A stretch of DNA of 64,000 bases from an uncultured Actinomycetes bacterium (GTDB taxonomy: Bacteria > Actinomycetota > UBA4738 > HRBIN12), in contig CAVVVF010000001.1 in assembly GCA_963751665.1 (NCBI GenBank), positions 18,652-82,651 of the forward strand, in the 5' to 3' direction. Below are positions 1 to 64,000 of the stretch, in pieces; position 1 is the first letter of the stretch, and every line of letters starts with the position of its first letter. The notes beneath the pieces are model-generated. The model was not told the origin of the DNA. It was given only the letters and a program-made list of their open reading frames with translations, and searched no databases. The translations under genes were made by a program, and so were the position numbers.

Positions 1-296
1 TCCAGGCGTGGTCGGAGAGGCCGGTCAGGTCGGCATGGGTCACCAGCGAGCCGTCGGGCTCCCTGCGCAGGAGAAGCCCATCGCTCCCGAGACGATCAGC
101 AGGCGCCCATCGGGCAGCCAGTCGATGCAGAATCGGAAACGACTGGCACGCGGACGATGACCTCGCTCTTGCCCTCGAGATCGACGGCGATGACCTCTTG
201 CGCGCCCCAGTCGGAGAACCAGAGACGGCCCTCGTGCCAACGCGGCGACTCGCCGAACGCGAGACCGGTCATCAGGGTTTGCAGCTCAGGCACGAG
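1..296 (-). pseudogene. SMP-30/gluconolactonase/LRE-like protein, N-terminal part, runs off window, apparent frameshift
   Basis: Translation MTGLAFGESPRWHEGRLWFSDWGAQEVIAVDLEGKSEV and, in another frame, WLPDGRLLIVSGAMG are typical SGL beta-propeller motifs; two reading frames needed. Confidence 0.4.
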
Positions 297-893
297 GGGC
301 CTCTCCTGCTGGCTGGTAGGTGAACTGGAATCAGGACGCCCGTGCCTGTCGTCGTGGAGTCGACGAGCCTCAGCGCGGTCGTCGCGCTCCCGTCCCTGAA
401 GAGACGCCGCCCGCTCCCCAGCACGATGGGGTGGACCATGAGCCGATACACGTCGACGAGGTCGTGCTCCATCAGCGTCTGGGCGAGATCGCCGCTGCCG
501 ATCACCTGGAGGTCCTTTCCGGGCTGCGCCTTCAGCTTGGCGATCCCTTCGGCGACATCGCCCTTGATCAGATGCGAGTTGTTCCACTCGAGGGGCTCCT
601 TCAGGGCTCTTCGAAACGACGTACTTGGGGAGGCTGTTGATCGTCTCGGCCAACGGGTCATGGGCCGCTGGAGCGGACGGCCAGAACGCCGCGAAGATCT
701 CGTAGGTCTTTCGCCCCAGAAGGAAACCGTCCGACGCGGCCATCCCCTCGAAGATGGCCTTTCCCGCGGCGTCGTCGAAGTACGGCCCCTGCCACCCACC
801 GTGCTCGAAGCCCCCACTCGGGTCCTCGTCCGCCCCTCCCGGGGCCTGCATGACCCCATCCAGCGTCAGGAACTCACTCACGATCACCCTCAT
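272..893 (-). pseudogene. dihydrofolate reductase-like (RibD C-terminal domain family) protein, frameshifted near 600
   Basis: N-terminal MRVIVSEFLTLDGVMQAPGG...GRKTYEIFAAFWP in one frame and C-terminal LQVIGSGDLAQTLMEHDLVDVYRLMVHPIVLGSGRRLF in another frame; both halves are RibD_C/DHFR-like. Confidence 0.55.
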
Positions 894-1571
894 CGCGACC
901 TCCTTCTCCTCCTGTCTCGGAGCTCTCACCTACCAGACGACGCGCCGCCGCCGAACTCATCGGTCGCTCGATGAGTTTGGCCGGGCCAACCGGTCTGTCT
1001 TGGAAAGAAGGATGGAAGGAGAGGCGCGGTTGGCCGGTCCCGAGGAGCCGCCGACGACATCGGTGCGTGGGGTGCGGACGCCTCCCGAGGCGAACGCCAT
1101 CCATGTGGTCATCAGCGGCCCGATGACCGGCGCAGCCATCGCGGGGCTCTGCGAACGCGTCCGGAGTGGCGCTGGAGGGCAGCGGCGCCGATCTGGTCGT
1201 ATGCGACGTCGGGGCGCTGGGCGACCCGGACGCCGTCACGATCGAGGCGCTGGCCCGGCTCCAGCTGACCGCGCTGAGGCTCGGGTGTCGCATCCGTGCT
1301 GCGCGACACGAGTGGCGAACTCCAGGAACTGCTCGCCCTGGTCGGGCTGGGCGACGTCGTCCCGCTCTGCGCGCCGGTTAGGCGCTCAGGCGTCGAGCCG
1401 GGCGGCAGCCCGAAGAGCGGGAACAGGGCTGCGGTGTCGAGGAAGAAGCTGATGCCGGCGATCCGACCGTCTGAGACCTCGAGCACCTGCAGCGCCCACG
1501 GCTCGTGCCCGCCGTGCGGGCGCTCGGCTTGTACTGCCCGAACGCGGGCGAGCCGTTCGCCACGGTCGGCA

Positions 1572-2380
1572 TCAGGCGCGAGCCGCGGCAGCCGATACCC
1601 GGGCCCGAGGCACCACGCGGCGGATGTCGTCGTGGGTCTGCAGCCACAGCGCGTAGGGCGGCATCGACCACGTGGCGTCCTCGCGCAGCAGCGACGTGAG
1701 CGAGTCCATGTCGTAGCGCTCGAAGGCGTCGACGTAGCGGGCGAGGAGCGCCCGCTGCTCGTCGTCCATCGGATCGCAGCGGCTCGGCGTCGTCGATCGT
1801 CGGCGGCCTCGAGGGTCGCGCGGGCGCGCTGCAGCGCGCTGTTGACCGAGGCGACGGACGTGTCGAGCAGCTCGGCGACCTCGGCGGCCTTCCAGCCGCA
1901 GCACCTCGCGCAGGATCAGCACCGCGCGCTGCCGCGGCGGCAGGTGCTGCAGCGCGGCGACGAAGGCGAGGCGGATCGACTCGCGCGCCCGGCCACCTCG
2001 GCGGGGTCGCCGCCCGGTCGGCACGACCGACCGTCGGGGATCGGCAGGATCCACGTCGCCTCGGGCAAGCGGCTCGCCGAGGCGGCGTCTCGGCCGCTTC
2101 GCGGGCCCGAGATCCATCGGCCGCGCCCGGCGCTCCTTCCCGCTCAGCATGTCGAGGCACACGTTGGTCGCGATGCGGTAGAGCCACGAGCGCAGCGCCG
2201 AGCGGCCCTCGAACGCGCTCGAAGCCCCGCCAGGCCCGCAGCATCGTCTCCTGCACGGCGTCCTCGGCCTCGAACGCCGGAGCCGAGCATCCGGTAGCCG
2301 TAGGCGGTCAGCTCGAGGCGATGCTGCTCCAGCCGGAGCTCCAGCTCCTCGGACCCGCGCGTCTTCGTGCTCTGAGCTAC
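1572..2380 (-). pseudogene. ECF sigma-70 factor with C-terminal SnoaL-like domain (SigJ-type), at least 2 frameshifts
   Basis: Region 2 (YGYRMLGS, QETMLRAWRGFE), region 4 (LPPRQRAVLILREVL) and SnoaL-like tail (LLARYVDAFERYDMDSLTSLLREDATW) found in three different frames of the minus strand. Confidence 0.55.
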
Positions 2381-2565
2381 GTCGTTCTCTCCGCCGCCAG
2401 CTCGGTCAACCCCGGTCGCTCCTCTCCGCCCAACCAGCCAACACTCTACGACGGTCGCCGGACGAGGAACTCATCGGGCACGACCGATGAGTCGTGCGGC
2501 GCTTCACCGTCCAAACAGGAATGATGGGAAGAGCGCCCGCGAGCGATTCGGCGGGAGGAGGAAAC

Positions 2566-3200
2566 GGATGGCTGAGGGACGGGTCCTCGTGGACATCTCG
2601 ATGTCTTTGGGATGGTTTCATCGCCGGGCCGAACGACAGCCCCGAACTGGGCCTGGGCGAAGGGGGGGAGCAGCTCCATCAATGGCTCTACGGCCTGGAG
2701 AGCTGGCGCAAGCCGCACGGCCTCGCCGGGGGCGGAGGTGAACCAGGAGTCCGAGGTGCTGGCGGAAGCCTCGCGCAACATCGGGGCCGCGGTGATGGGC
2801 CGCCGCATGTTCGACAACGCGGTGGACGCGTGGGGAGAGACCCGCCCTTCCACATGCCGGTGTTCGTGCTGACCCATGAAGCCCGCGAGCCACTGGTCAA
2901 GCAGGGGGGCACGACGTTCATCTTTGTCACGGATGGCATCGAGAGCGCGCTCCGGCAGGCGCAGGGCGGCCGCCGGGTGACAAGGATGTCTCGCTCGCCG
3001 GTGGGGCGAACATCATCCAGCAATACCTGAAGGCGGGGCTCGCTCGACGAGGTGCAACTCCACCTGGTCCCCATCCTGCTCGGTGGCGGCATGCGGCTGT
3101 TCGAGAACCTGGGCGCGCAGCCCGATCGAACTGCAAAAGACGAGGGTGATCGAATCCCCCGGTGTCACCCATCTACGGTTCCACGTCGTCAAGTAGATGG
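2566..3200 (+). pseudogene. second dihydrofolate reductase-like (RibD_C family) protein, multiply frameshifted
   Basis: MAEGRVLVDISMSL-DGFIAGPNDSPE..., ...GRRMFDNAVDAWGE..HMPVFVLTHEAREPL..., ...QLHLVPILLGGGMRLFENLG spread over three frames. Confidence 0.45.
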
Positions 3201-3343
3201 CGGCGAGGCGCAGAGTCGAACGGAGGTTCCGATGGGAAACGTGATCGTCTCGATGTTCCTGACGCTGGATTCGAGGATGCCGATCTGACGGGTGCCCGAC
3301 GCGGGACCGATGAGTTTTCCGGGCGATCCGGGGGTCGAAGCAG

Positions 3344-4777
3344 ATGACCACTACCCAAAAGGAGCTCCTCATGAAGTCCTCGCCTTCCCAGCCCACGACC
3401 ATCTCGATCCCGCAGCTCCGCGCCGCCCTCAACGGCCGGGTGATCGCGCCGGACGACGCCGGGTACGACGAGGCGCGCACCGTCTTCTACGGCGGGATCG
3501 ACCGCCGGCCGGCGGTCATCGTCCGGGTCGCGGACGCGGCCGACGTCGCGCGCGTCGTCTCGCTCGCGCGCGAGACCGGGCTGGAGCTCGCCGTCCGCAG
3601 CGGCGGCCACAGCGTCGCCGGCCACAGCGTCACCGACGGCGGGATCGTGCTCGACCTCGCGCGACATGCGGGCGCTGGAGATCGACGCCGAACGGACGCA
3701 CCGCCTGGGCCGAGACGGGCCTGACCGCCGGCGAGTACACGACCGCGGCGGCGGCCCACGGCCTCGCCACCGGCTTCGGCGACACCGGCTCGGTCGGGAT
3801 CGGCGGGCATCACGCTGGGCGGCGGCGTCGGCTACCTCGTCCGCAAGCACGGCCTCACGATCGACGACCTGCTGGCCGCCGACATCGTGACCGCGGACGG
3901 CCAGCTCCTGCGCGTGGACGCCGAGACGCACCCGGACCTCTTCTGGGCGATCCGCGGCGGCGGCGGCAACTTCGGCGTCGCGACCCGCTTCCAGTTCCGG
4001 CTGCACGAGGTCGACACGGTCGTGGGCGGGATGCTGATCCTGCCGGCGACGCCCGACGTCATCGCCGCGCTTCATCGCCGAGGCGGAGGCCGCGCCGGAG
4101 GAGCTGTCGACCATCGCCAACGTCATGCCCGCGCCGCCGATGCCGTTCCTGCCCGCGGAGCATCACGGCCAGCTGGTCGTCATGGCCATGCTGGTCTACG
4201 CCGGCGACGGTCGAGGCCGGCGAGCGCGCCGTCGCGCCGTTCCGGGCGCTCGCCACGCCGATCGCCGACATGGTCCGGCCGATGCGCTACCCGGAGATCT
4301 ACCCGCCGGAGGACGACGCGCTACCACCCGACCGCGGTGGCGCGCACGATGTTCGTCGACACGATCGACCGCGACGTGGCCGAGACGATCGTCGAGCACC
4401 TCGAGGCGTCCGACGCGCCGATGCGCGTGGCGCAGCTCCGGGTGCTCGGCGGGGCGATGGCCCGCGTGCCGGCGAGGCCACCGCGTTCGCCCACCGCGCG
4501 AGCCGGATCATGGTGAACGTCGCCGCGTTCTACGAGCGGCCCGAGGACCGAGGCGGTGCGCGAGGCCTGGGTCGACGACTTCGCGGCGGCGCTGCAGCCA
4601 GGGCGACGCCGGCGCGTACGTCAACTTCCTCGGCGACGAGGGCGAGGCGCGGGTCCGCGAGGCCTACCCGGGGCCGACCTGGGACCGGCTGGCGGCGATC
4701 AAGCCCGCTACGACCCGACCAACCTCTTCCGGCTCAACCAGAACATCCCGCCGCTGAACGAGGGTCCCGGGCCGTGA
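3344..4777 (+). pseudogene. FAD-binding oxidoreductase (FAD_binding_4 / berberine-bridge-enzyme-like), about 8 frameshifts
   Basis: Continuous homology to FAD-linked oxidases ([56 protein letters not shown]-terminal BBE-like YVNFLGDEGEARVREAYPGPTWDRLAAIKARYDPTNLFRLNQNIPP) can only be followed by hopping frames roughly every 150-200 bp. Confidence 0.6.
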
Positions 4778-4904
4778 GGGGGCTCCACCCTTCAGGCGCG
4801 GAATGAACGTGGGGCGAGGTGATCGCCCACGGATGATCGGTGACTCGAGGACGGCATCATCGGATAGTCTCTGGCCCACATCACCGAGCTCGGAGTTCGC
4901 GGGG

Positions 4905-5550
4905 ATGGCGTTTCGTGGCTGGCCGGCGGAGGCCCTCGAGTTCTTCGAGGGACTCGAGGCCGACAACTCAAAGACCTATTGGCAGCGGAACAAGGATGTC
5001 TACGAGTCGTTGGTTCGCGCCCCGATGGAGCAGCTGCTGGAAGAGCTCGCGCCCGAGTTTGGCGAGGGCCGGATCTTTCGACCGTATCGGGACATCCGAT
5101 TCAGCTCCGACAAGTCGCCGTACAAGACCAACATCGCAGCGATGATCGGCGAAGGCTACGTTGAACTCACCGCCGATGGATTGGGGGCTGGGATGCGGCA
5201 TGTGGGATATGGCTCCGGACCAGCTCGAGCGCTATCGAGAGGCGGTGACCGAGGATCGGTCCGGTGGCAAACTGGTTGATCTGGTGGCGAAGGCACGGGA
5301 GGCGGGACTGACGATCACTGGCCACGAGGTCCTGAAGTCCGCACCGAAGGGATACCCAAAGGATCATCCCCGGATCGGGCTCCTTCGGTACAAAGGCCTG
5401 ATCACGTGGTGCGAGTGGCCCGCGGCAGCATGGCTGGGGACCCGGCGAGCAAAGGATCGGGTGGCCGAGTTCTTCCGGCTTTCCAGGCCGCTCAACACGT
5501 GGCTGCGGACTAACGTCGGTCCCTCGACCCTTCCCGAGCGGCGGCGATAG
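4905..5550 (+). pseudogene. DUF2461 (TIGR02453) family protein, one frameshift near 5190
   Basis: MAFRGWPAEALEFFEGLEADNSKTYWQRNKDVYE...IFRPYRDIRFSSDKSPYKTN then, in another frame, ...KLVDLVAKAREAGLTITGHEVLKSAPKGYPKDHPRIGLLRYKGL. Confidence 0.5.
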
Positions 5551-5584
5551 TCTCGGCGACCGGCAACGTATGGAAGGAGGCCGC

Positions 5585-5938
5585 ATGAACCTGAACAGCA
5601 TCATGATCGGGTCCGAGGACCCTCGGCGCTTGACCGACTACTACGCCAAGCTCTTCGGCATGCCCGCCTGGGAAGAAGGGGACTTCAAGGGCTGGCAGAT
5701 CGGCTCGGGCTCCGTCTCCGTTGGGCTGCATGATCAGGTGAAAGGCAAGAACACCCACCCGGGCCGAGTGATGTGGAACATCGAGACCGCCGACGTGAAG
5801 GGCGATTTCGAACGGCTCAAGGCCGCCGGAGCGACTGTGGTCCAAGAGCCGTACCAACCGGAAGGGGCGCCCGAGATGCTGGTCGCCACGTTCTCCGACC
5901 CGGACGACAACTATTTCCAGCTCATGAGCCCGATGTAG
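5585..5938 (+). CDS. VOC family (glyoxalase/bleomycin-resistance-like) protein
   Basis: 118 aa ORF with GGAAGGAGG ribosome-binding site 5 bp upstream of ATG; small VOC-fold-like sequence. Confidence 0.55.
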   Translation: MNLNSIMIGSEDPRRLTDYYAKLFGMPAWEEGDFKGWQIGSGSVSVGLHDQVKGKNTHPGRVMWNIETADVKGDFERLKAAGATVVQEPYQPEGAPEMLVATFSDPDDNYFQLMSPM

Positions 5939-5960
5939 CGACCGGCCGATGACCGCCGGG

Positions 5961-7101
5961 CTATCGCCCCGACGGAGGACCCGTCGACCGTCGGAGGACG
6001 AGCTCTCCGGGCAGGACCGATGATCGCTGCGGAGGCTCGCCTCGGATCGACGAGAGGATGGAAGCCATCGCCATCCGGCCCATCTCGCGGCGGGGCTGCC
6101 GGATCGTCGTGAGCGGCGGCTCGCTGAAGGCTGCCATCTCGATGTCGTCGAATCCGATCACCGACAAGACGCCGGGCACTTCGATCCCGTGCGCGTGCAC
6201 GGCTCGGATCACGCCGATCGCGGTGGCGTCGTCGTACGCCACGATCGCGGTCGGGGCGTCGTCGGGCGGCGAAGCCAGGAGATCCTGCGTGGCCTGGAAC
6301 CCGCCCTCGGGGCTCCGAGGCGAGGACACGATCGCTCCGGGCAGGCAGTCCCGCCTCGAGAAGCGCACTGCGGAACCCGAGGACCCGAAGAAGCGATGGC
6401 CGGATCGGCTCGGCGCCGACGAAGGCGATCCGCTCATGCCCGAGCGAGATCAGATGGCGAACGACCTCCTGAGCCGCGCCATAGTCGTCGAACACGATCT
6501 GCGAGAGGGACGCTTCGGTCTCCGTCGCCGCCCGGACGGCCTCGAGGACCCGCTGCGGTGACCCCGTCCGCACGATCGTGACGAACCGCGCCGGGAACGC
6601 AGCGTCCCAGTTGACGATGACTACCGGGACGTCGGGCTCTTCGCCGTAGAACCAGGAGGCCGACTCACCTGCGGCGCCGGCGATGATGATGCCTGCGACG
6701 CGCTGTGCCAGGAACACCTCGATCATCCGCCGCTCGCGCTCCGGCTCCGAGTGCGAGTTCGCGAACAGCACCGAGTAGTTGGCCTCGGAGGCGGCCTCCT
6801 CGATGCCCGCCGCTACTTCGCCCCAGAACGAGTCGACCGACGAGGGGATCAACATCCCGACGGTGCTCGACGTGCGGGTCACGAGCGCGCGGGCGATGTG
6901 ATCCGGGCGGTAGTCCAGCCGCCGTGCAGCCGCTTCGACCTTGCTGCGGGTCTCGTCGCGGACCGCCGGGTGACCTTGGAGCGCGCGGGTCACCGTGGCC
7001 GTCGAAACCCCCGCTGCCTCGGCTACGTCTCGAACCGTCACGCGCGTCCGCCCGGCGGAAGCGCGACTCCGTCGCCGGCACCCTCCAGAACCGTCGTTCA
7101 T
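5961..7101 (-). pseudogene. LacI family transcriptional regulator, one frameshift near 6400
   Basis: N-terminal HTH VTVRDVAEAAGVSTATVTRALQG and periplasmic-binding-like core in one frame; C-terminal part (IVAYDDATAIGVIRAVHAHGIEVPGVLSVIGFDDIEMAAF) in another. Confidence 0.6.
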
Positions 7102-7240
7102 CGCTATGAAAACCATTACATGCGCCGGTGGCGCGGGTCAAAGGGGCCACGACTCTCCGATGGAGCTCCATTGACCGCGGCGATGTCGGTGGTGTAAACG
7201 CTTGCAGGGAACGCCGGACCGCGAGAGGAGCCACGCGCGC

Positions 7241-9294: not shown

Positions 9295-10432
9295 CTAGAT
9301 CCGCACCGACCCCGGGACCGACGTCGGCGCGTCGATCGCGGCACCCGTCCTGTGCGCCTCGACGATCGATCGGCAAAGCGCGATATCCCGGAGCGCGTCG
9401 TCGCCGTTGGTGAGCGGCGCGCGCCCCTCGACGATGCTGGAGTGGAACTCGAGAAGCTCCCTGCGGAACGCCTCGTCGTAGGAGACCAGCTCCTCGACCC
9501 GGCGCGACCCGGCAGGCTCGACCCCGCCTTCCTCGAGCACGAGCATCGTAGGCATGTTCCGGAGGAAGGGGGAGGGGAACGTCAACGTGGCCCGCGCGCT
9601 CGGCGCGAGGAACGTCCAGTCCTGCTCGTAACGCGGCAGCCCGGGCAGGTCGACCCACATCGCGATGCACTCGGTGTCGCCGAATCGAAGGACCGCGCTC
9701 ACGCCCTGTTTTCTGACCGATGCGAACGCGAGTTCGTCCGGCTCGCCGAGCAGCCCCCGCATGGCGTTGAGCTCGTGGATCATGCTGTCCAGCAGGATGT
9801 TGCGGTAGACCGCGCGGACGATGGGGTCGACATCTCCGCCCAGGGCGGACTCGGTCCGCTGGCGGTCGTCCTCGACCAACGCCTCGGTCGTCTCCGTAGG
9901 CACGTCGTCGACCCGGATCAACGGGACATGCGCGACGTACGGCTGCTGCGGGGCCTCGAAGGTGGTGAACCGCACGAGCGGCAGCGGCTGGAGCTGTGGG
10001 AGGATCTCGGCCACCCGTTCGTACGCCGGGTCGAACCGCTTCATGTACCCGACCATCAGCGACACGCTGGCCTTGCTCGCTGCGGCGATCATCTCGAGCC
10101 CCTCAGCGATCGAGAGGCCCATCGGCTTCTCGACGAACACGTGCAGGCCGGCGCGGGCCGCGGCGATCGCGGCGGGCGCATGGCTCCCCGGCGTCAACAC
10201 CATCACGGCGTCCAACGGCTCCGCGAGCAGATCCTCCCATCGGGTGTGCCGCCGCTCGACCCCGTAGGCGTCGGCAACGCCGGTGAGGGTGCCCGGCGAG
10301 ATGTCGCACAGGGCGGTGATCTCGAACTCCTCGGCGAGGTCCCGGAGGTGTGGAAGGTGTTTCAGCCTGGGCGATCAGGCCGCAGCCGATCAGCCCGACG
10401 CGGATACGTTGGGTGGCCACGGCGCGAAGCAT
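9295..10432 (-). pseudogene. Gfo/Idh/MocA family oxidoreductase (inositol 2-dehydrogenase-like), one frameshift near 10340
   Basis: N-terminus MLRAVATQRIRVGLIGCGLIAQ in one frame; remainder (VMVLTPGSHAPAAIAAARAGLHVFVEKPM...) in the long 306 aa ORF. Confidence 0.6.
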
Positions 10433-10604
10433 AGCGGGACGTCCTTCGTGCCACGGTCGTGGCCATCGCTTGATACATGCAGCCACGTCACGTTGCCTTG
10501 ACACCTTCGTGCACGACGGCTAGCGTCGCTCCCCGGGACTCCATGAAAGCGCTTACACCCGCCGGTGCGGTGGCACGGCCATCCCGCTCGCCGAGGCTCG
10601 ACCG

Positions 10605-11741
10605 TTGAGGGAACCGAGCGCCAGCAGCGTCGAGTTCCGATCCGTGGAGAAGCGGTTTGGCACCGTGCAGGTGCTGAACGACTTCTCGCTGGAGATCCCC
10701 GAGGGTGCGTTCCTGGTCGTCCTGGGTCCGTCCGGGTGTGGCAAGACGACCGCGCTGCGCATCCTGGCCGGCCTCGAGCCGCCGAGCGGAGGCCGTGTGC
10801 TGATCGGCGGCGACGACGTGACCGACCTCCCGCCGCGCCGCCGGAACGTGGCGATGGTGTTCCAGAGCTACGCGCTGTATCCGCACATGAACATCGAGGA
10901 GAACATCGGGTACCCGCTCAAGATCCGCAACGTCCCCAAGCCCGAGCGCCACGCTGCCGTCATGCAGGTGGCGGAGCTCGTGGGGATCCCCCACCTGCTC
11001 GACCGGCGGCCGCGACAGCTCTCGGGCGGCCAGCGGCAGCGGGTCGCGCTCGCGCGGGCGATGGTGCGCAATCCGTCGTGCTTCCTGATGGACGAGCCGC
11101 TCTCCAATCTCGACGCGAAGCTGCGGACATCGATGCGGGGCGAGCTGAAGCGGCTCCAGAAAGAGCTGGGCACGACGACGCTCTATGTGACGCACGACCA
11201 GGCCGAAGCCACGACCATGGCCGATCTGATCGCGGTCATCGACAACGGCGACCTGCAGCAGATCGCGACGCCCAACGAGATCTACGACCGCCCCGCGAAC
11301 CGGTTCGTCGCGACCTTCGTGGGCAATCCGGCGCTCTCGCTCGTGCCGGGACGGATGGACCGCGTCGCCGGACGGTTCGTGAGCGATCTCGGCGCGGTTC
11401 GGCTATCGGAACGGACGCTGTCCGCCTCGGCGGACGCGGCCGTCGAGCAGATGGGGGTGAGGCCCGAGGACCTACGGTTGACATCGCCCGAAGAAGAGGG
11501 CGTGCTGCGGGGACAGGTATACGTCGTGGAGCCGATGGGCCACGAGACGATCGTCGAGGTCCAGGCGGGGGACGTGCATCTGGTCGTGCTGGCCCCTCGC
11601 GATTGGCGGGGCGCATTCGGCCAATCCGTGGGCATCCGCGTCGACGACCGGACGGCGTGCTTCTTCGACGCGGAGGGCAGAACGACGATCCAACGCAGTG
11701 ACCGCGGCGGACGGGCCGATCAGGAGGAGGTCGCGATATGA
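10605..11741 (+). CDS. ABC transporter ATP-binding protein, sugar-import MalK/UgpC/MsmK type
   Basis: Walker A GPSGCGKTT, signature LSGGQRQRVALARA, Walker B FLMDEPLSNLD, C-terminal TOBE-like regulatory domain. Confidence 0.8.
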   Translation: MREPSASSVEFRSVEKRFGTVQVLNDFSLEIPEGAFLVVLGPSGCGKTTALRILAGLEPPSGGRVLIGGDDVTDLPPRRRNVAMVFQSYALYPHMNIEENIGYPLKIRNVPKPERHAAVMQVAELVGIPHLLDRRPRQLSGGQRQRVALARAMVRNPSCFLMDEPLSNLDAKLRTSMRGELKRLQKELGTTTLYVTHDQAEATTMADLIAVIDNGDLQQIATPNEIYDRPANRFVATFVGNPALSLVPGRMDRVAGRFVSDLGAVRLSERTLSASADAAVEQMGVRPEDLRLTSPEEEGVLRGQVYVVEPMGHETIVEVQAGDVHLVVLAPRDWRGAFGQSVGIRVDDRTACFFDAEGRTTIQRSDRGGRADQEEVAI

Positions 11742-18590: not shown

Positions 18591-18670
18591 CATCGGCTGG
18601 TCTCTTTCTCTTCCGCGCAGAGCGCGCGGGACGACTATGTTTGGTCCGACTGACGGGTGGGAGCCGCGGC

Positions 18671-37440: not shown

Positions 37441-37500
37441 ACGTCATCCGCGATCGGCGACGCCGACCGAAACCTGACGCCAGAAAGAGGGAGGAAGGCG

Positions 37501-46046: not shown

Positions 46047-46096
46047 TTCCTGTTGGAGGACGGACCTCCAGGCTATTGAGCACTGGGGCGCAGTGC

Positions 46097-53595: not shown

Positions 53596-53720
53596 GCTCT
53601 CTCGAGCATCGGGTGAGTCCCTTGAGAACGGCTTGAAAGAGGCGTCCAGCCGTTCTCAGGGCTCCTCCGCCAACCTCGAGCGTGGTCCTCATAGGAGCGA
53701 CCAGAGGAAGGGAGGAAGGT

Positions 53721-54482
53721 ATGACACACACCGATCGAACCGGCAGCGGTGCGGAACGCTCGAGCAGCGCGATGCGATGGCCTGCGGCCTCGCTCCTGCT
53801 CGCCTTCGCGCTGATGGCGGGGGCGTGCGGAGGCGCAACGCAAGAGGGTCCCGAGGCGACGGGTGGATCTAACGCGCCATCGAGTTCGACCACGACCCCT
53901 GCGCACCTCCCGAGCGGCGGCGCGTTGGAGCCCGGGACGTATGTCGTCACCGCGATCGATCCCGACTTTGATGCGGCGCACCGGATCACGATCAGCGTTC
54001 CAGAGGGCTACCAGGCCCTCTTCGGATGGGGCATCCTGAAGAACGAGGGGCGCCAATGGGTGAGCGCTTCGGTCGTTGGCAACGTCTACGCCGATGCGTG
54101 CCAGTGGGAAGGCACGCTCCTCGACCCACCGGTGGGCTCGAACTTCGATGCTCTCGTCGCCGCGCTTGCAAATCAGCTCGGGCCTCGCACGTCGACGCCG
54201 ACGGACGTCACGCTGGCTGGGTTCGCCGGGAAGCGGATGGTGTTGTTGGTGCCCGCCAGCATCAACGTGCGCCTCTGCGACAACGGCCAGTTCCGATTCT
54301 GGCTCGACACCGGCGGGGGAGAGCGGTACTCGCCGTTTTCCGGTGAGCGCGACCGGCTGTGGATCTTGGATGTCGACGGCGTTCCGCTCGTGATCGAGGC
54401 AGCGTGGCCAGCCGGGGCATCGGCGCAGGTTCAAGCCGAGCTTGTCCAGATGGTGGAGTCGGTCCGCATCGACCCTTCGTAA
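53721..54482 (+). CDS. hypothetical secreted lipoprotein
   Basis: GGGAGGAAGG RBS; lipobox LLLAFALMAGAC after N-terminal extension; no recognisable domain. Confidence 0.5.
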   Translation: MTHTDRTGSGAERSSSAMRWPAASLLLAFALMAGACGGATQEGPEATGGSNAPSSSTTTPAHLPSGGALEPGTYVVTAIDPDFDAAHRITISVPEGYQALFGWGILKNEGRQWVSASVVGNVYADACQWEGTLLDPPVGSNFDALVAALANQLGPRTSTPTDVTLAGFAGKRMVLLVPASINVRLCDNGQFRFWLDTGGGERYSPFSGERDRLWILDVDGVPLVIEAAWPAGASAQVQAELVQMVESVRIDPS

Positions 54483-54848
54483 CAGGCCAACGAAGGAGTG
54501 CGCCGAGAAAGCCCGGTCCCGCCCTGAGGGACCGGGCTTCTCGGCCTGAACCGATCTCGACGCAGCACTCCCGCGCCGTCACCCGGCGGCATTGGATCGC
54601 GTTCGAACTCGCGGTCCAGACCGCAGGGTCTATCGGTGGCGCATGCGCCTCAGGTGTCTTACCGGATTGCGAGGTCCAGGGGTGATCTGCCCGTGACGCC
54701 TCGCGGTCGGCTGCGGGGACAGATGCGGGACGAGAAGAGGGGCGGCCCAGCCTGTTCAGCGCGCTTGATCGGCGCTTCGGTGCGACTGAAAGGCCGTGTC
54801 TGCACCTTGACCAGGGTGGAGACGGGAACTCCGACGATGCGTTTCCCC

Positions 54849-55556: not shown

Positions 55557-57027
55557 ATGACCGACCGGATCCCATCGCGCCCGCTCCGCTCCGCGTTGCC
55601 GGCCGTGCTGCTGGTCCTGGCACTCCTGGCCGCGGCCTGCACGCGCTCGGACGCGGCGACGGAGGTCTCAGCCTCACCGTCGGCGAGCAGGTCGGCGCCC
55701 CTCCAGGGGTTCGACAACATCCAGCACGTCATCTTCGTGGTGCAGGAGAACCGGTCCTTCGATCACTACTTCGGGACGTTCCCCGGAGCGAACGGCATCC
55801 CGATGAAGGACGGGAAGCCGACCGTGTGCATCCCGGACCCGGTGCTCGGCACATGCGTCCGGCCGTTCCACGAGGCCGCCCTGATCAACCAGGGCGGGCC
55901 CCACGACCTGTCGCACTCGAAGATCGACGTGAACGGCGGAAAGATGGACGGCTTCGTCCGCTCGGTGGCCCAGTACTCGCCGAACCCGTGTGCCCGCACT
56001 CGACTGGCCCAGTACTGCGAGGGCACGCTCGGCCCCCAGGGCCAGCCCGACGTGATGGGGTGGCACGACGCGCGGGAGATCCCGAACTACTGGGCGTACG
56101 CGGAGAACTTCGTGCTCCAGGACCGGATGTTCGCCCCGACCGACTCGTGGACGCTCCCCGCGCACCTGTTCCTGGTCTCCGGATGGTCGGCCCGATGCCA
56201 GAGCCCGTGGAAGCCGATGAGCTGCGACGACCGACCTCCTCCAGAAGGGCGTCGTGGACCTCCAGCGCCACGGCGAGCACCCGCCGATCTACGCGTGGAC
56301 GGACATCACCTGGCTCCTGCACCGGGAGGGGATCAGCTGGGCCTACTACGCGGGGAAGAACCTGTGCGGGCCCGAGGTCCCGGTCAAGGAGTGCGCCTCG
56401 GGCGGCGCGACGCCCGCGCAGAACCCGCTGCCGTCGTTCACCGACGTGCACCAGACCAAGCAGCTCGGCAAGGTGCAGACCCACGATGACTTCTTCAACG
56501 CGGTCTCGAGCGGCACACTGCCGCAGGTCTCGTGGGTGGTGCCGGGACGGGGCGGCATCAGCGAACACCCGGGGACCGGCGCGCCGCTCACGGGCGGCCA
56601 GACCTGGGTCACCAGGGTGGTGAACGCCGTGATGCAGAGCCAGCTGTGGAACACCAGCGCGATCTTCGTCACGTGGGACGACTGGGGCGGGTTCTACGAT
56701 CACGTGGTGCCGCCGAGGGTGGACGGAAGCGGCTACGGCATGAGGGTCCCGGGCCTGCTGATCAGCCCGTGGGCCAAGGCCGGCACGATCGATCACCAGA
56801 CGCTGTCATTCGACGCGTACCTGAAGTTCATCGAGGACCTGTTCCTGGGGAGCCAGCGCCTGGACCCCAAGACCGACGGGCGGCCGGACTCCCGGCCCAC
56901 CGTGCGGGAGAACATGAAGCAGCTGGGCGACCTGCGGAACGAGTTCGACTTCACGCAGGACCCGCTGCCGCCGCTGATCCTCGACCCTCATCCGTCGCCG
57001 GGCCCGGCGTCGATCCCGGGGACGTGA
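55557..57027 (+). pseudogene. phosphoesterase family protein (phospholipase C / acid phosphatase AcpA family), copy 1, frameshift near 56230
   Basis: Lipoprotein-like signal; IQHVIFVVQENRSFDHYFGTFPGANG; C-terminal half ([18 protein letters not shown]...[17 protein letters not shown]) in a second frame. Confidence 0.65.
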
Positions 57028-57029
57028 CG

Positions 57030-58489
57030 ATGAAACCGTCCAGGCGGTCGCTCGCGTCGCTCCTCGCCTGCTTCGCGCTCGCGGCTGCCTGCGCGCACTC
57101 GGCCGGCGACTCCACCGGAGGGGACGGCCCAAGGGCCGGGGCCGCGAGCCCGGCCTCGCCCGCGACGACGGCACCACCGTCGCAGCTCGACCTGGCGAGG
57201 CAGCACATCGACCACGTCATCGTCATCGTCCAGGAGAACCGGTCGTTCGATCACTACTTCGGGACCTACCCGGGCGCCGACGGCATCCCCATGGCGAACG
57301 GCTCGCCCACCGTGTGCGTGCCCGACCCCGTCCTGCAGAAGTGCGTGCCCCCGTTCCACTCGACGAGCCAGCTCCAGAAGGGCGGACCCCACACCCACCG
57401 CCACTCGGTCGCCGACGTGGACGGGGGGAAGATGGACGGCTTCATCCGCACGGCCATCTCCGGAAAGATCGATTGCGCGACCAGCCGGAGTGATCCGGGG
57501 TGCGAGAGCTACCTGGGACCGCAGGGCCAGCCCGACGTGATGAGCTATCACACGCCGGGACGAGATCCCGAACTACTGGGCCTACGCCGATCACTTCGTG
57601 CTCCAGGACCGGATGTTCGCGCCGGCGGACTCCTGGACCTTGCCCGCGCACCTGTACCTGGTCTCGGCGTGGTCGGCCTCGTGCACGAGCCCGTACGACC
57701 CCATGAGCTGCTCGTCGGACCTCGGCCTCGGGGACCAGGCCGAAGATCCAGCGGGGTGGCCAGGTGCCGATGTGGGCGTGGACCGACGTCACCTGGCTCC
57801 TTGACCGGGCCGGCGTGAGCTGGGCCTACTACGTGGGCGAGGACACCTGCTTCATCGACCCCTGTCCCCATGCCAGCGGCAAGTACACGCCGGCGTTCCA
57901 GAACCCGCTCCCAGGGTTCACCACGGTCCGGCAGAACCACCAGCTCCGGAACATCCGCTCTCACAGCGACTACTTCGCGAGGGCTGCGGCCGGGACGCTC
58001 CCGTCGGTGTCCTGGGTCATGCCGTACAACGGCGCCGCCGAGCACCCGAGCAGCGGCCAGCCCATCTGGAAGGGCATGGCCCACGTGACGAAGGTGATAA
58101 ACGCGGCGATGAACGGGCCCGACTGGAACAGCACGGCGATCTTCCTCACCTGGGACGACTGGGGCGGGTTCTACGACCACGTCGTGCCCCCACGCGTTGA
58201 CGCGAACGGCTTCGGCATCAGGGTCCCGGCCCTGATGATCAGCCCGTGGGCCAAGGCCGGCACGATCGATCACCAGACGCTGTCGTTCGACGCCTATCTG
58301 AAATTCATCGAGGACCTGTTCCTGGGACGTCAGCGCCTGAACCCCAAGACCGACGGGCGGCCGGATTCCCGGCCCACCGTGCGGGAGAAGCTCCCGATCC
58401 TGGGCGACCTGCTGAACGAGTTCGACTTCGCGCAGGACCCGTTGCCGCCGCTGGCCCTGAACCCCACCCCGCTTCCCGGCACGCCGTAG
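57030..58489 (+). pseudogene. phosphoesterase family protein (PLC/AcpA family), tandem paralogue copy 2, two frameshifts (about 57545 and 57770)
   Basis: IDHVIVIVQENRSFDHYFGTYPGADG ... then three frames to reach ...[59 protein letters not shown], nearly identical to copy 1 C-terminus. Confidence 0.65.
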
Positions 58490-58609
58490 CCTTCCTGGCG
58501 GCAGCTATCATCCCGTGTTGAACGGAGGTGGAATCCCACGGAGCTTCAACGTGAGCTCGCCGGCGACCCGGCGCTCGAGGGAACCATCGAACGGTTCCGG
58601 AGCTCTGGC

Positions 58610-60027
58610 GTGGTCCTTCCGACCTTCGCCGAGCTGGCCGATCCGAGCAAGATCTCCGAACGGATCCGCCCGGCACTTGCCTCCGTGGATCCCGATGCGG
58701 CCCACCCACTGAACCTGTTCCGGGTCCACTGGTACAACGGCGCCCGATCGGAGGCAGCAGGTGACCGTGCCGGAGCACGTGGTGCTGTCCGCGCGAGCTC
58801 ACCGGGGTGGATGCGAGGATCGTGGTCGCGCTGGGGGACCGGTTCCCCATGATCGGCGCGCACAAGGTGCTGGCGGCCTACGGGTGCCTGGCTCCCCGCA
58901 TCGTGACCGGCAGCTTCGACCCGGGCCGCCACCGGGCGGTGTGGCCGTCCACCGGCAACTACTGCCGGGGCGGGGTGGCCATCTCCCGGATCATGGGCTG
59001 TCGAGGCGTGGCCGTCCTGCCCGAGGGCATGAGCCGAGAGCGGTTCGACTGGCTGGAGCGGTGGGTGGCCGAGCCCGAGGACATCGTGCGGACGCCCGGG
59101 ACCGAGAGCAACGTCAGGGAGATCTACGACGCGTGCAAGGAGCTGGCACGGGATCCCGAGAACGTGATCCTGAACCAGTTCTCCGAGTTCGGGAACCACC
59201 TCGCGCATTACGCGTGCACCGGCGCGGCGTTGGAGCGGGTGTACGAGTCCATGCGCGAGCGCGACGGCTCGCTTCAGCTGCGGGCTTTCGTGTCGGCGAG
59301 CGGCTCGGCCGGGACGCTCGGCGCCGGCGACTACCTGAAGGAGCGGCACGGGTCGAAGATCGTGGCCGTCGAGGCCCTGGAGTGCCCGACCATGCTGTAC
59401 AACGGGTTCGGCGAGCACAACATCCAGGGCATCGGGGACAAACACATCCCGTTCATCCACAACGTCATGAACACCGACGCCGTGACGGCGATCTCGGACC
59501 GGGACACCGACAGGCTGAACGTCCTGTTCAACACCGACGTCGGCCGAAGCCTGCTGGCCCGGCGGGGAGTGGAGGCCGGCGTGATCGAGGCGCTCTCCTC
59601 GTTCGGCCTGTCCAGCATCTGCAACGTGCTGGCGGCGATCAAGGCGGCGCGGTCCTTCGCCATGGGGCCGGACGATGTGATCGTCACGGTGGCCACCGAC
59701 GGCGCCGCCATGTACGGGACGGAGAAGGACAAGGTGCTGGGGCGCGACTTCCCGGACGGCTTCGACGAGACCGCCGCGGCCGAGACGTTCGGCGGCTCGC
59801 TCGAGGGCCTGAGCACCGATCACTTCCTGGAGCTCGGGGAGCGGGACCGCGAACGCGTGTTCAACCTGGGGTACTTCACGTGGGTCGAGCAGCAAGGGGT
59901 CTCGGTGGAGGACTTCACGGCGCGGCGGTCCCAAGGGTTCTGGCGGGACCTGCGCGACCAGCTACCCCTGTGGGACTCGATGATCGAGGAGCTCAACGCC
60001 CGCACCGGCCTGGCGGAGGAAGCGTGA
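58610..60027 (+). CDS. pyridoxal-phosphate-dependent enzyme, tryptophan-synthase-beta (PALP) fold, with N-terminal extension; apparent frameshift near 58800
   Basis: PALP-like core in 406 aa ORF (…[14 protein letters not shown]…[13 protein letters not shown]…); conserved-looking N-terminal peptide ([41 protein letters not shown]) lies upstream in another frame; start uncertain. Confidence 0.5.
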
Positions 60028-60031
60028 GGCC

Positions 60032-61378
60032 GTGACCGGGAACGCCACCTCCATCGTGTGCGCGGGGTGCGGCTTCGCCGTGCCGCCCGAGGAGCCTTAT
60101 CCCTTCCGATGCCCGAACGCCAGGCCCGGCGATGACATCGATCACGTGCTCGTCCGGGAGCTCGACCCCACCCACGTGGGGTTCCCCCAGGGCGACGAGG
60201 CCAACCCGTACGTTCGCTATCGCGAACTGTTCCACGCCTACCACCTGTGCCTCCGGCACGGGATGACCGACGGCGGCTTCGTCGACCTGGTGGAGTCGCT
60301 GGACAAGGCCGTGGCCGAGGTGGACGGCCGAAGCTTCCTGATCACCCCGTTCTTTCGTGCCGACGAGCTCTCGGATCGGCTTCGGTTCTCCTCGGAGGGT
60401 GGGGTGTGGGTGAAGGACGAGACCGGCAACGTCTCGGGCTCGCACAAGGCCCGGCATCTGATGGGGGTCATGCTGCTCCTTCTTGTCGCGGAACAGGCCG
60501 GCCTTGCCCCGGACGGGGAGCGACCCCTGGCCATCGCCTCCTGCGGGAACGCGGCCCTGGCCGCCGCGGTGGTGGCCCGGGCCGCGGACCGGACCCTGAA
60601 GGTGTTCGTCCCCACGTGGGCCGACCCGGACATCCGCTCGCGCCTTGAAGCCCTGGGGGCCGAGGTGGTGGTGTGCCGCCGGAAGGAAGGAGTGTCCGGC
60701 GACCCGGCGTACCTCGCCATGCGCGAGGCGCTGGATGAGGGGGCGCTGCCCTTCACCGTGCAGGGCCCGGACAACGGGATGGCCATCGAGGGCGGGGAGA
60801 CCATCGGCTACGAGATGATCTCGGAGCTCGCCCGGACCGACGTCGGCCTGGACCGACTCGTGGTGCAGGTGGGTGGCGGGGCGTTGGCCAGCTCGTCCAT
60901 CCGGGCCTTCGAGGACGCGGCTCTGCTCGAAGCCCGGGTCAAGCTGCCGAAGATCCACGCGGTCCAGACGCTCGGCGGCTACCCGCTCAGGCGGGCCTAC
61001 GGGCTGCTCGTCGCAAGGATGGAGGATCCCACTTCACCGGTCGACATCGTGGAGGCGCTGCGGTACGCGCGCACCCACCGCTCGAAGTTCATGTGGCCGT
61101 GGGAGGAGGAGCCGAAGAGCATCGCCACCGGCATCATCGACGACGAGACCTACGATTGGGCGGCGGTGGTCGCCGGGATGCTGGCCACCGGCGGCTCGCC
61201 GGTGCTCGTCTCGGACGAGACCGTCGTGGAGGCCGAGGCCATAGCCCACGTCACCACGGAGATCCCGGTCGATCCCACGGGGGCGGCCGGCCTGGCCGGC
61301 CTCCTGGAGCTGGTGCGGGGCGGCGAGGTCGAACCCGACGAGCGGGTGGCGGTGCTGTTCACCGGGAGCAAGCGCTGA
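60032..61378 (+). CDS. pyridoxal-phosphate-dependent enzyme (threonine-synthase-like PALP fold) with N-terminal zinc-ribbon
   Basis: CAGCGF...FRCPNARPGD Cys cluster; PLP-lysine region KDETGNVSGSHKARHL; glycine-rich loop VQVGGGALASS. Confidence 0.6.
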   Translation: MTGNATSIVCAGCGFAVPPEEPYPFRCPNARPGDDIDHVLVRELDPTHVGFPQGDEANPYVRYRELFHAYHLCLRHGMTDGGFVDLVESLDKAVAEVDGRSFLITPFFRADELSDRLRFSSEGGVWVKDETGNVSGSHKARHLMGVMLLLLVAEQAGLAPDGERPLAIASCGNAALAAAVVARAADRTLKVFVPTWADPDIRSRLEALGAEVVVCRRKEGVSGDPAYLAMREALDEGALPFTVQGPDNGMAIEGGETIGYEMISELARTDVGLDRLVVQVGGGALASSSIRAFEDAALLEARVKLPKIHAVQTLGGYPLRRAYGLLVARMEDPTSPVDIVEALRYARTHRSKFMWPWEEEPKSIATGIIDDETYDWAAVVAGMLATGGSPVLVSDETVVEAEAIAHVTTEIPVDPTGAAGLAGLLELVRGGEVEPDERVAVLFTGSKR

Positions 61379-61401
61379 ACGAACGAGGAGGAACGCAGAC
61401 G

Positions 61402-62391
61402 ATGAGGAGCTTCCTGGGCCGGGACATCCTGTCGCTCAAGGACTTCGAGCGGGAGGAGTACTTCCACGTCTTCGAGGTGGCCGATCATCTCGCGCCCCAC
61501 GCCCGGGACCGGCGGAACGGGGACCTGCTCCGGGAGAAGACCCTGGTCACCGCGTTCTACCAGCCGAGTACGCGGACCCGCCTGGCCACCGAGGGCGCCA
61601 TGCACCGCCTCGGCGGCCACGTATGCGGGTTCTCCGACGCCAAGATGACCAGGGCCGGGGACTTCTATCAGGAGTCCATCAAGGACACGGTCCACATGCT
61701 GGAGTTCTACGGCGACGTCATCGCCATGCGGCACTTCCAGCAGGGGGCACCGGCCGAGGCGGCGCGGTGGGCGTCGGTGCCGGTGATCAACTGTGGCGAC
61801 GGCTGGGGCGAGCACCCCACGCAGGTCCTGACCGACCTGTACACCATGTGGCACGAGAAGGGGACGCTCGACGGGCTCACGGTGCTCTGCGTCGGCGACA
61901 TGCGGATGCGGACCATGCACTCCATCCTGTACGCGATGTCGCAGTTCGACATGGAGGCGTTGATCGTGTGCCCGCCCGAGATGACGCTCCTCCCGGAGTT
62001 CAAGTCCGAGCTCGACGATCGGAGCGTGTCCTATCGCGAGGTCGAGTCGGTGGACAAGTGCATCGGCGAGGCCGACGTGATCTACATGGAGCCGGTGGTC
62101 CAGGCCGACTACACGAAGGGACGGGACGAGCGCGGGGGGGAGCTGCCGACGACGCCCGAGGCCTACCGGGTGACCCGGCAGCTGCTCCGGGACAAGGGCA
62201 AGAGCGACTCCATCGTGCTCCACTCGCTGCCCCGGATGGACGAGCTGCCGGTCGACGTGGACGATACGCACCATGCGCGATACTGGATCGAGGCCTACAA
62301 CGGCGTCGTGATGCGGATGGCCCTGCTGGCGCTGGTGCTGGGCGGCGGTGGAGTGACGCGAAAGGGGTGCCGGCCGTGCGGTTCACGTTGA
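61402..62391 (+). CDS. aspartate/ornithine carbamoyltransferase family protein (YgeW-like possibility)
   Basis: STRTR carbamoyl-phosphate motif, HPTQ motif, HSLP (HCLP variant); GAGGAGGAACG RBS. Confidence 0.7.
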   Translation: MRSFLGRDILSLKDFEREEYFHVFEVADHLAPHARDRRNGDLLREKTLVTAFYQPSTRTRLATEGAMHRLGGHVCGFSDAKMTRAGDFYQESIKDTVHMLEFYGDVIAMRHFQQGAPAEAARWASVPVINCGDGWGEHPTQVLTDLYTMWHEKGTLDGLTVLCVGDMRMRTMHSILYAMSQFDMEALIVCPPEMTLLPEFKSELDDRSVSYREVESVDKCIGEADVIYMEPVVQADYTKGRDERGGELPTTPEAYRVTRQLLRDKGKSDSIVLHSLPRMDELPVDVDDTHHARYWIEAYNGVVMRMALLALVLGGGGVTRKGCRPCGSR

Positions 62392-64000
62392 ACGGGGAGC
62401 CAGTCGAGGCCGAGGTCCGCCCGGGGATGAGCCTGCTCGAGCTGCTCCGCGAGGAGTGCGGCGTCACCTCGGTGAAGGACGGCTGTGCTCCCGAAGGCTC
62501 CTGCGGAGCGTGCACCGTGCTGGTCGACGGCAAGGCGGTCGTGTCGTGCGCCCAGAAGGCCGGACACGCGGATGGGCGGAGCGTGGTGACCCAGGAGGGG
62601 CTGTCGGCCGCCGAGCGCGACATGTGGGCGGACTGCTTCGTTGCCTCCGGCGCCTCGCAGTGCGGGTTCTGCTCGCCGGGCATCGTGATGAAGGCCGAGG
62701 GGCTCCTGGCCAAGAACCCCGAGCCGTCGCGCAACGAGATCGCTCGCGCGCTGGCCGGCAACCTGTGCCGGTGCACCGGCTACGTGAAGATCGTGGACGC
62801 CATCGAGTTCGCCGCGGGAGCCAAGCGCGGCGAGCCGGTGCCGGAGCCCGACTGGAGCGGGAAGGTCGGCTCCCGAACCGGCCGGTACCAGGGCCGGGAG
62901 CTGGCCCTCGGGCGACAAGCCGTACGTGAACGATCTGAAGGCCGAGGGGATGCTGCACGCGGCCATCCGGTTCTCCGATCATCCCCGGGCCAGGGTGCTT
63001 CGCATCGACGCGTCGACGGCGGTCGCGCACCCCGGCGTCGTTGCCGTCGCGACGGCTGCCGGACGTGCCCGGCGAGCGGACGCAGGGGTTGATCACCAGG
63101 GACTGGCGCCAGCTCGTCGCCGAAGGCGAGGTCACGAGCTACGTCGGCGACGTGCTGGCGGTCGTGGCCGCGGACACTCGCCAGGCGGCGCGCGAGGCCG
63201 CCGCGATGGTCGAGGTGGAGTACGAGGTCCTGGAGCCGGTGACCGACCCGTTTCGCGCGCTGGAGCCGGATGCGCCGAGGCTGCACGACGGCGGGAACCT
63301 GCTGTCGACCTCGATCGTGAGGCGAGGCGACGTCGACGCGGCCCTGGCGGGCTCGGCCCACGTGCTGACCGAGACGTTCCAGACCCAAGCCGTGGAGCAC
63401 GCCTTCCTGGAGCCGGAGTCGTCCTTCGCCGTGCCGCAGGACGGCGGCTTCCACGTGTCCTCGCAGGGCCAGGGGGTGTGGGAGGACCGGCGGCAGGTCG
63501 CCTCGTTCCTCGGCCTGCCCGAGGAGAAGGTGCGGGTGACGCTGGTGTCGAACGGCGGCGCATTCGGGGCCAAGGAGGACCTGAACGTCCAGTGCCACGC
63601 CGCGCTGATGGCACACCTCACCGGGCGGCCCGTGCTGCTCACGCTGACCCGCGAGGAGAGCCTGAAGTTCCACCCCAAGCGCCACCCGCTCACGATGGAG
63701 TACACGATCGGGGCCGACGCCGACGGCCGCCTCACGGGCATCCGCGCACGCATCGTGGGCGACACCGGCGCGTACGCGAGCGTCGGCGACAAGGTCCTGG
63801 AGCGGGCGGCGGGCCACGCGTGCGGGCCGTACCGGTTCGAGGCCGTCGACGTCGAGGCGAAGGCCGTGTACACGAACAACCCGCCGAACGGCGCGATGCG
63901 CGGCTTCGGCGTGAACCAGGTGGCGTTCGCCGTGGACGGCATGCTCGACCGGCTGGCCGAGAAGGTCGGCGTGGACGGCTGGGAGATCCGGTGGCGGAAC
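62376..64000 (+). CDS. xanthine dehydrogenase/aldehyde oxidase family protein: (2Fe-2S) small-subunit domain fused to molybdopterin-binding large-subunit domain; runs off window; at least 2 apparent frameshifts (about 62905, 63070)
   Basis: GCAPEGSCGACTV, SQCGFCSPGIVM, NLCRCTGY Fe-S motifs; then MLHAAIRFSDHPRARVLRIDAS...GVNQVAFAVDGMLDRLAEKVG (Mo-binding domain) in shifted frames. Confidence 0.65.

Follow-up and report, generated by a model that had tools for sequence, protein, structure and literature searches.

Dense single-base frame breaks in a 64-kb contig segment of an uncultured soil actinomycetote, probably consensus errors of the assembly

Many genes in the 64-kb window analysed here (the whole stretch of contig CAVVVF010000001.1 under study; 68% GC) are cut by frameshifts, most densely in a block at positions 1-4861 and in a single giant gene at 47910-53595(-), which raises the question of whether the organism has been losing these genes or whether the deposited sequence misreports them. 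Gene content and nearest relatives place the source among uncultured soil Actinomycetota, and the nearest loci in the genome collection, for example that of ‘Actinobacteria bacterium AC_69’, encode proteins that are 88-89% identical. We consider it probable (roughly 0.87) that the frame breaks arose as errors in the assembly consensus, concentrated in strain-variable segments, and are not mutations of the organism, because they are private, 1 nt in size, rich in insertions and independent of homopolymers, and are accompanied by neither nonsense substitutions nor relaxed selection. A few isolated breaks are possibly real.

Number and distribution of the frame breaks

Reading frames were followed with a plot of GC content at third codon positions (GC3) and with a Viterbi path on codon usage through six coding states. 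Under a strict rule, a junction between frames was counted where both flanking segments measured at least 60 nt and more than 45 nt lay before the next stop of the upstream frame. Proteins were aligned to DNA with an aligner written for this analysis that permits skips of 1 and 2 nt, and Pfam was run on six-frame translations of positions 1-4950 and on proteins stitched along the Viterbi path. About 70 single-base frame breaks were located in about 18 of the roughly 50 genes, with about 26 in 1-4762, about 34 in the 5.7-kb gene at 47910-53595(-) and none between 15 and 35.9 kb. Strict junctions number 39 in the window (6.1 per 10 kb), whereas short-read contigs from related organisms have 10 in 240 kb (0.42 per 10 kb); the frame breaks are truly in the deposited sequence, far above chance. 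In 1-4762 and 47965-53601, changes between frames of one strand follow one another at intervals of 50-350 nt along the Viterbi path, which keeps to long single-frame stretches over most of the rest, and indel rates range from at most 1 per 20 kb (15-36 kb) through about 1 per 1-2 kb (5-12 and 55-64 kb) to about 1 per 150-180 bp in the two dense segments. A preliminary description had reported pervasive, uneven frameshifts that were dense in the same two regions, and GC3, Viterbi path, Pfam and protein-guided alignment bear this out.

That description took 47.9-53.6 kb for several genes; the segment instead holds one gene of about 1,900 amino acids (aa), intact homologues of which are common among metagenome-assembled genomes (MAGs) of Actinomycetota. 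Aligned to P0002 (also to P0004) over aa 1-1904, the giant gene is 84.5% identical with no stop in 1,874 matched codons. It carries about 34 single-base indels in total, and its breaks divide into about 16 insertions and about 16 deletions. The sole in-frame TGA (about 49290) falls within four codons thrown out of register by a deletion and an insertion of 1 nt each, separated by 11 nt. As a control, the aligner returned no break in the four JGI short-read contigs that contain the full gene (L010, L012, L047 and L014).

In the first dense block, the gene for an FAD-binding/BBE oxidase aligns at full length (88% identity, 464 matched codons) without an in-frame stop, its ten breaks being eight insertions (about 3662, 3699, 3805, 4070, 4212, 4321, 4552 and 4598) and two deletions (about 4473 and 4705). 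Stitched proteins regained essentially complete Pfam domains over the junctions: RibD_C profile positions 3-195 of 197 in the product of 331-914(-), and Sigma70_r2 (3-70 of 71), Sigma70_r4_2 (2-54 of 54) and SnoaL_2 (2-100 of 102) in an ECF sigma factor. The earlier reading that fragments keep good peptide sequence in each frame, and hence reflect indels and not substitutional decay, was correct and provides the central argument. The corrected proteins are full length and contain no nonsense substitution. When near-identical clean copies were sought, the best match to the FAD oxidase was 86-88% identical, and the best to the giant-gene allele, in the protein database and JGI contigs, was 83-88% identical in amino acids.

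The intact stretch supplies an internal contrast. At 15-18.6 kb, the 3.5-kb gene forms one open reading frame (ORF) with no frame switch, of which the comparator contig L007, aligned from 18277 onwards, covers the last ~300 nt only; the HEAT/cNMP-binding gene at 18.6-21.5 kb has no coding indel relative to L007, and from 18277 onwards the only coding irregularity against this contig is a compensating deletion/insertion pair at 18453/18456. The description of the genes at 15-21.5 kb as intact therefore held: the ORF and the codon path vouch for the first gene, and L007 for the sequence from 18277 on. Over 18.3-38.6 kb, about 20 kb that include the cbb operon, the sole coding indel is a G at 35960 in the transketolase gene, and the parallel statement that the whole cbb operon is intact was thus slightly wrong.

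Signature of the breaks

The preliminary description left two options, uncorrected long-read indel errors in low-coverage patches or clustered pseudogenisation, and proposed homopolymer context, orthologous loci of relatives and selection on frame-corrected genes as ways of choosing between them; on these counts the first option is supported and the second is not. All breaks are 1 nt in size, and they have no homopolymer preference, the longest run within 6 nt of a break averaging 2.55 compared with 2.51 at random background positions. Spontaneous bacterial indels are deletion-biased and variable in length, and real frameshift mutations gather in homopolymer runs. These features bear on the proposal of genuine recent pseudogenisation in two strain-specific islands, the accessory block at 0-4.8 kb and the giant STAND/WD40 gene, together with a few genes elsewhere. 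Pseudogenes are plausible in accessory, strain-variable DNA such as these blocks, but the breaks comprise at least as many insertions as deletions, all of 1 nt and indifferent to homopolymers.

Substitutions argue against pseudogenisation more directly. There is no nonsense substitution in the approximately 2,340 aligned codons of the giant gene and the FAD oxidase, although these carry 34 and 10 indels, respectively. In this sequence, random substitutions would create stops in 2.6-3.1% of cases. If the 34 indels were real and the substitution:indel ratio lay in the usual range of 5-10, 4-10 stops would be expected, the probability of none being 0.012 to 0.00003. Corrected proteins are 84-88% identical to intact homologues, as close as these homologues are to each other. 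A codon alignment of the giant gene was made from the window, from JGI outgroups and from L001, a second contig (ENA ERZ25039513:contig_57945) with a related allele. Substitutions private to the window lineage are distributed 54/36/120 over codon positions 1/2/3, with 88 synonymous and 30 non-synonymous (75% synonymous, against a neutral expectation of 27-32%); these counts give no sign that selection on the giant gene has relaxed in the window lineage. The window and L001 alleles likewise split under purifying selection, which argues against ancestral breaks, and clusters like those described here occur in core transporter genes of nanopore MAGs. Some real rearrangement is hinted at by a truncated gene stub (3212-3265) and, at 38.7-39.4 kb, by a transposase fragment, and three or four breaks are common to the L001 allele (see below), but taken together we consider pseudogenisation of the two islands quite improbable. 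An excess of nonsense and non-synonymous changes, a deletion bias and varied indel length, as expected of genuine pseudogenes, were not found. Pseudogenes of the Mycobacterium leprae type resemble the window in that many genes have multiple frameshifts and recognisable peptide similarity, but differ in their nonsense and non-synonymous changes, multi-base deletions and deletion bias, none of which occurs here.

Wherever comparison was possible, breaks were absent from other assemblies, so that every comparable break is private to the source contig (the L001 copy of the giant gene is treated below). For the two dense blocks, the search yielded no near-identical comparator. Outside the dense blocks, the isolated breaks are 1-nt insertions in 12 of 12 cases, and nucleotide comparison places such insertions at 5193, 6339, 10366, 35960, 56228, 57554, 57742, 58745, 58788, 62910 and 63057. 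The first four are missing from JGI contigs (L003 and L005) and Logan contigs (L004 and L006) of 96.8-98.6% identity. Those at 55-64 kb are missing from two to four short-read MAG contigs (among L089, L090, L091 and L092) of related species with 88-90% nucleotide identity, and their positions are the exact switch sites of the Viterbi path. A few window-private indels also fall between genes in the nucleotide alignments. The DUF2461 gene exemplifies the pattern: further private indels at 4872, 4900 and 5552 lie just outside it and are absent from L003 and L004, the gene is intact (214 aa) on four other contigs, and the frameshifted 124-aa ORF occurs only on the 1.05-Mb source contig in a collection of 15 billion proteins.

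A mixed origin, with artefactual dense clusters and some real isolated breaks (LacI at 6339, transposase near 38977, transketolase at 35960 and the phosphoesterase paralogues), would agree with the private indels at 18-38 kb, which are mostly intergenic with one coding and fit selection-filtered variation better than random error, and with the frequent inactivation of redundant paralogues (here, two phosphoesterases) and mobile-element genes. We nonetheless regard it as unlikely, because +1 insertions in non-repetitive context in all 12 cases form a uniform technical signature that is the reverse of a deletion bias, and because single-copy metabolic genes with conserved neighbours are affected, namely those for transketolase, a xanthine-dehydrogenase-family enzyme (twice) and a pyridoxal-phosphate (PLP)-dependent enzyme (twice). 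Programmed ribosomal frameshifting, transcriptional slippage or targeted diversification has a single hint in its favour, the hypervariability of the giant gene between strains, and is scarcely credible with 10-34 breaks per gene, in both directions and with no common slippery motif or homopolymer, in unrelated genes on both strands whose orthologues are uninterrupted in short-read assemblies.

Strain-variable segments and long-read provenance

Both dense blocks are, by comparison with other contigs, strain-variable DNA. Positions 1-4861 have no counterpart in L003, which comes from another sample and is 96.8-98.6% identical to the window from 4862 onwards and unrelated upstream of this point. 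At the giant gene, the window and L001 differ by 23 mismatches in 44.2-47.5 kb and match perfectly in 53.5-54.8 kb, whereas in 47.5-53.5 kb mismatches rise to 8-12% (blastn), or 14% over aligned codons. These mismatches are biased towards third codon positions (117/53/31 and 109/51/26) and thus belong to a real, diverged whole-gene allele between shared flanks and are not noise, and the window allele is nearer to the JGI contig L010 (87% nucleotide identity) than to L001 (86%). L001 encodes an identical copy of the adjacent lipoprotein (53721-54482), and so does a 1-kb Logan contig from run ERR10755943, which matches the window at 100% identity over 53506-54506 and begins exactly at the divergence boundary. 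A scan of the genome-collection contigs with this 253-aa lipoprotein gave no match.

The L001 copy of the giant gene has 25-29 breaks of its own, mostly at positions other than those of the window. Its flanks carry compensating deletion/insertion pairs, 98-137 nt apart, in a GDSL-lipase gene (L001:69-3224, equivalent to 44309-47464). The possibility that these pairs (44.7-45.1 kb) are errors of the window was rejected because frame +1 scores best throughout the window, leaving them as errors of L001, whose quality beyond the giant gene is therefore below that of the window.

Strain heterogeneity (microdiversity) is known to produce artefacts that the segment at 47.5-53.5 kb resembles, in that a second contig with identical flanks holds a 14% diverged, break-riddled allele there, but the window allele is no mosaic. 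A chimeric consensus of two alleles was rejected: mismatches to L001 are evenly spread along the gene (8-12%), with no identical stretches. This even density suggests that low allele-specific depth is likelier than a chimeric consensus. Breaks are clustered about 100-fold between neighbouring segments in a way that matches strain-variable DNA, which points to strain mixing or steps in depth rather than to sequence context. In the shared segments, reads of several co-occurring strains would support the consensus; in a strain-specific segment, reads of one strain only, or mis-mapped reads of diverged alleles, would do so, and polishing may fail there and leave the consensus near raw quality.

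The surroundings of the source are also consistent with long reads. L001 has a Flye-style contig name and belongs to an ENA metagenome assembly, and the related genomes of the collection include many ‘MFDxxxxx.bin’ MAGs whose contigs are named like L001. The MFD catalogue (Microflora Danica long-read) was produced from nanopore data with Flye (--meta --nano-hq) and one Medaka round, without short-read polishing, and its authors note effects of sequencing errors in lower-coverage MAGs (PMC12313526); the same group found that nanopore MAG bins under ~40x need polishing (PMC9262707). In the Viterbi test, 15 MFD loci averaged 2.1 junctions per 10 kb (range 0-15 per locus), compared with 0.42 in 15 short-read loci. 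Clusters checked by eye in MFD loci lie in ordinary genes, at L147:3480-7290 (BMP-family binding protein, ABC ATPase and permease) and L165:525-2700 (MMPL transporter). The MFD locus L136 has a similar local cluster of frame switches, and other MFD loci have none. Unpolished or low-coverage long-read assemblies resemble the window in several respects: single-base indels cut conserved genes, correction yields full-length proteins, relatives assembled from short reads are free of breaks, and error frequency differs between and within MAGs. The source contig would very probably be a long-read assembly without short-read polishing, in the nanopore-only style of Flye plus Medaka; here we infer the platform used for sequencing, the cause in read depth or mixing of strains, and the assignment of the source to a given MAG catalogue.

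Several points weigh against an origin in consensus errors. All tests were made at the level of assembled consensus sequences, and the comparators for 55-64 kb belong to other species, so that real lineage-specific mutations are formally possible there. Textbook nanopore errors are deletions in homopolymers, and the breaks depart from this classical pattern, as insertions outside homopolymers dominate and homopolymers are not enriched; this insertion-rich spectrum makes the assignment of a platform tentative. The gene for the PLP enzyme has no break in 24 MFD loci and two in 56 others, in loci that were chosen by intact matches. Finally, three or four of about 30 breaks in the giant gene (aa 507, 668, 1350 and 1426) are common to the window and L001 despite differing synonymous sites on their flanks. 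At aa 507, where intact orthologues read ACG GGC or ACC GGG, the window and L001 are each short of one base of the G/C run, and such a shared loss in a short G/C run fits context-dependent error. Shared breaks could be taken for real frameshifts, which would then have to be ancestral; because the two alleles diverged under purifying selection, an origin in an ancestral dead gene is unlikely. We regard them as probable systematic errors or errors from cross-mapped reads, and this is the weakest point of the argument. Alternatively, the dense blocks could represent real and very recent decay of strain-specific accessory DNA, in particular with the giant STAND-NTPase/WD40 gene being lost from one strain and intact, highly diverged alleles persisting in its sister strains, in which case the shared breaks would be true lesions; we hold this to be highly improbable and retain consensus errors as the preferred explanation.

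Affected genes, their neighbours and consequences

Table 1. Genes of the window discussed in the text, with the evidence for each frame break. Comparator contigs are named as in the text; Viterbi, codon-usage path; Pfam matches are to stitched proteins where so stated.
Feature	Coordinates	Strand	Breaks and evidence
SMP-30/gluconolactonase-like fragment at window edge	1-330	-	About 3 switches near 72, 138 and 312; Viterbi; weak SGL match (stitched) under the Pfam cut-off
RibD_C (dihydrofolate-reductase-like) gene	331-914	-	Break near 607; RibD_C split between frames -1 and -2
ECF sigma factor with SnoaL-like C-terminal domain	1284-2389	-	About 7 switches; Sigma70_r2 and Sigma70_r4_2 each in two frames
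Second RibD_C-like gene	2540-3120	+	At least 4 switches (2731, 2839, 2978, 3041); Viterbi, junction test; stitched RibD_C match
N-terminal stub of a RibD_C-type gene, MGNVIVSMFLTLD..., 17 codons, truncated	3212-3265	+	Frame +0 translation
FAD-binding/BBE oxidase	3371-4774	+	10 single-base breaks; frameshift-aware alignment to intact P0153, P0154, P0156 and P0160
DUF2461 gene	4905-5553	+	1-nt insertion (A) at 5193, absent from L003 and L004
LacI-family regulator	5911-7116	-	1-nt insertion (G) at 6339; blastn to L003, 98.6% identity; switch at 6312
Gfo/Idh/MocA oxidoreductase	9295-10434	-	1-nt insertion (C) at 10366 severs the N-terminus; blastn to L003, intact there (378 aa)
Sugar ABC-transporter solute-binding protein	11738-13091	+	Break near 12214; next stop 232 nt away; stitched SBP_bac_1 spans the junction
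Two long intact genes: cyclase-AAA_16-TPR (1180 aa) and HEAT/cNMP-binding (~950-980 aa)	15048-21532	+	Single ORFs; internal contrast
Transketolase, cbb operon	34101-36165	+	1-nt insertion (G) at 35960, absent from L005 and L006
Transposase fragment (rve_3/HTH_32)	38732-39351	-	Switch near 38977; Viterbi, junction test; weak Pfam matches under cut-offs
Giant gene: class III cyclase, SARP/BTAD, Ser/Thr kinase, nSTAND1 NTPase, WD40; one gene of ~1,900 aa	47910-53595	-	32 breaks plus a compensating deletion/insertion pair
Phosphoesterase (phospholipase C family), gene 1	55557-57027	+	1-nt insertion at ~56228 relative to L089 and L092; stitched Phosphoesterase 1-353 of 356
Phosphoesterase paralogue 2	57182-58489	+	1-nt insertions at 57554 and 57742 relative to L089 and L092; stitched profile 1-353 of 356
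PLP-dependent (PALP) enzyme	58553-60035	+	1-nt insertions at ~58745 and ~58788, N-terminal part, relative to L089, L090, L091 and L092
Fused 2Fe-2S/xanthine-dehydrogenase-family molybdopterin gene, running off the window	62367-64000	+	1-nt insertions at ~62910 and ~63057 relative to L089 and L092

In the first dense block, the neighbourhood of L169, a relative with the FAD oxidase, is not syntenic and offers no counterpart by which the RibD_C stub could be interpreted; the suggestion of additional deletions in the preliminary description has this one short stub as its basis. Close to this block, L003:2329-5402 is an insertion of 3.07 kb with an ArsP_1 permease gene, a PAP2 phosphatase gene and a small ORF, which is absent from the window at 5944-5948 and marks a strain-variable junction. 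JGI and Logan contigs encode the VOC protein of 5585-5938 without any difference. Within the HEAT/cNMP-binding gene, GC3 phase and codon signal flip to another frame or strand over about 250 nt (20549-20797); a hidden double frameshift was rejected here, as there is no indel relative to L007, and the stretch is a compositional oddity.

The insertion at 35960 shifts the last ~57 codons of the transketolase gene and fuses its ORF with the downstream AAA/CbbX gene, two genes that are separate in L005 and L006 (686 aa for transketolase and 424-426 aa for the AAA protein). The cbb operon (28286-38523) has Complex1_51K (NuoF-like) and CBS-domain genes between prk and rpe, a divergent LysR regulator upstream and, downstream of transketolase, the AAA (CbbX-like) gene with an extra N-terminal domain followed by a class I aldolase gene. 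JGI and Logan contigs share this gene order, and the RuBisCO large subunit of the window is present on several of them. Synteny with L005 and L006 stops at 38577, after the cbb aldolase, beyond which the window has the transposase fragment and L005 a dienelactone-hydrolase gene.

Towards the giant gene, an in-frame stop at 46700-46702(-) splits a PD40/Tricorn-like repeat protein into 47464-46703 and 46699-46100, both in the same frame; L001 and the window differ there by an indel at 46727, and different ORFs are called. The giant gene itself is a sharp-edged divergent allele whose flanks match L001 at 99-100% identity, and its locus looks like an allelic replacement at a hypervariable STAND-NTPase locus. 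It is possible that this locus encodes an NLR-like sensor under diversifying exchange, a matter largely independent of the frameshifts. The tandem phosphoesterase paralogues (55557-58489) are about 71% identical in nucleotides and are arranged in the same way in L089 and L092. In the stitched molybdopterin protein, Ald_Xan_dh_C (2-109 of 110) crosses the break at 63057, and the break at 62910 lies just upstream of the match. Megablast of 1-25 kb and 40-64 kb against a plasmid database returned no close relatives.

The finding is a caveat about data quality and not about biology. About one-third of the genes in the window would wrongly enter an annotation as fragments or pseudogenes, and ORFs would run together, as for transketolase and cbbX, so that pseudogene counts, pangenome presence/absence and selection analyses that use such MAGs would be distorted. 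The insertion-rich, homopolymer-independent pattern means that correction of homopolymers alone would be insufficient and that frame-aware, homologue-guided correction or re-polishing at the level of reads is needed. As the errors are probably concentrated in strain-variable DNA, the accessory, defence-like and hypervariable genes of interest would be those damaged most.

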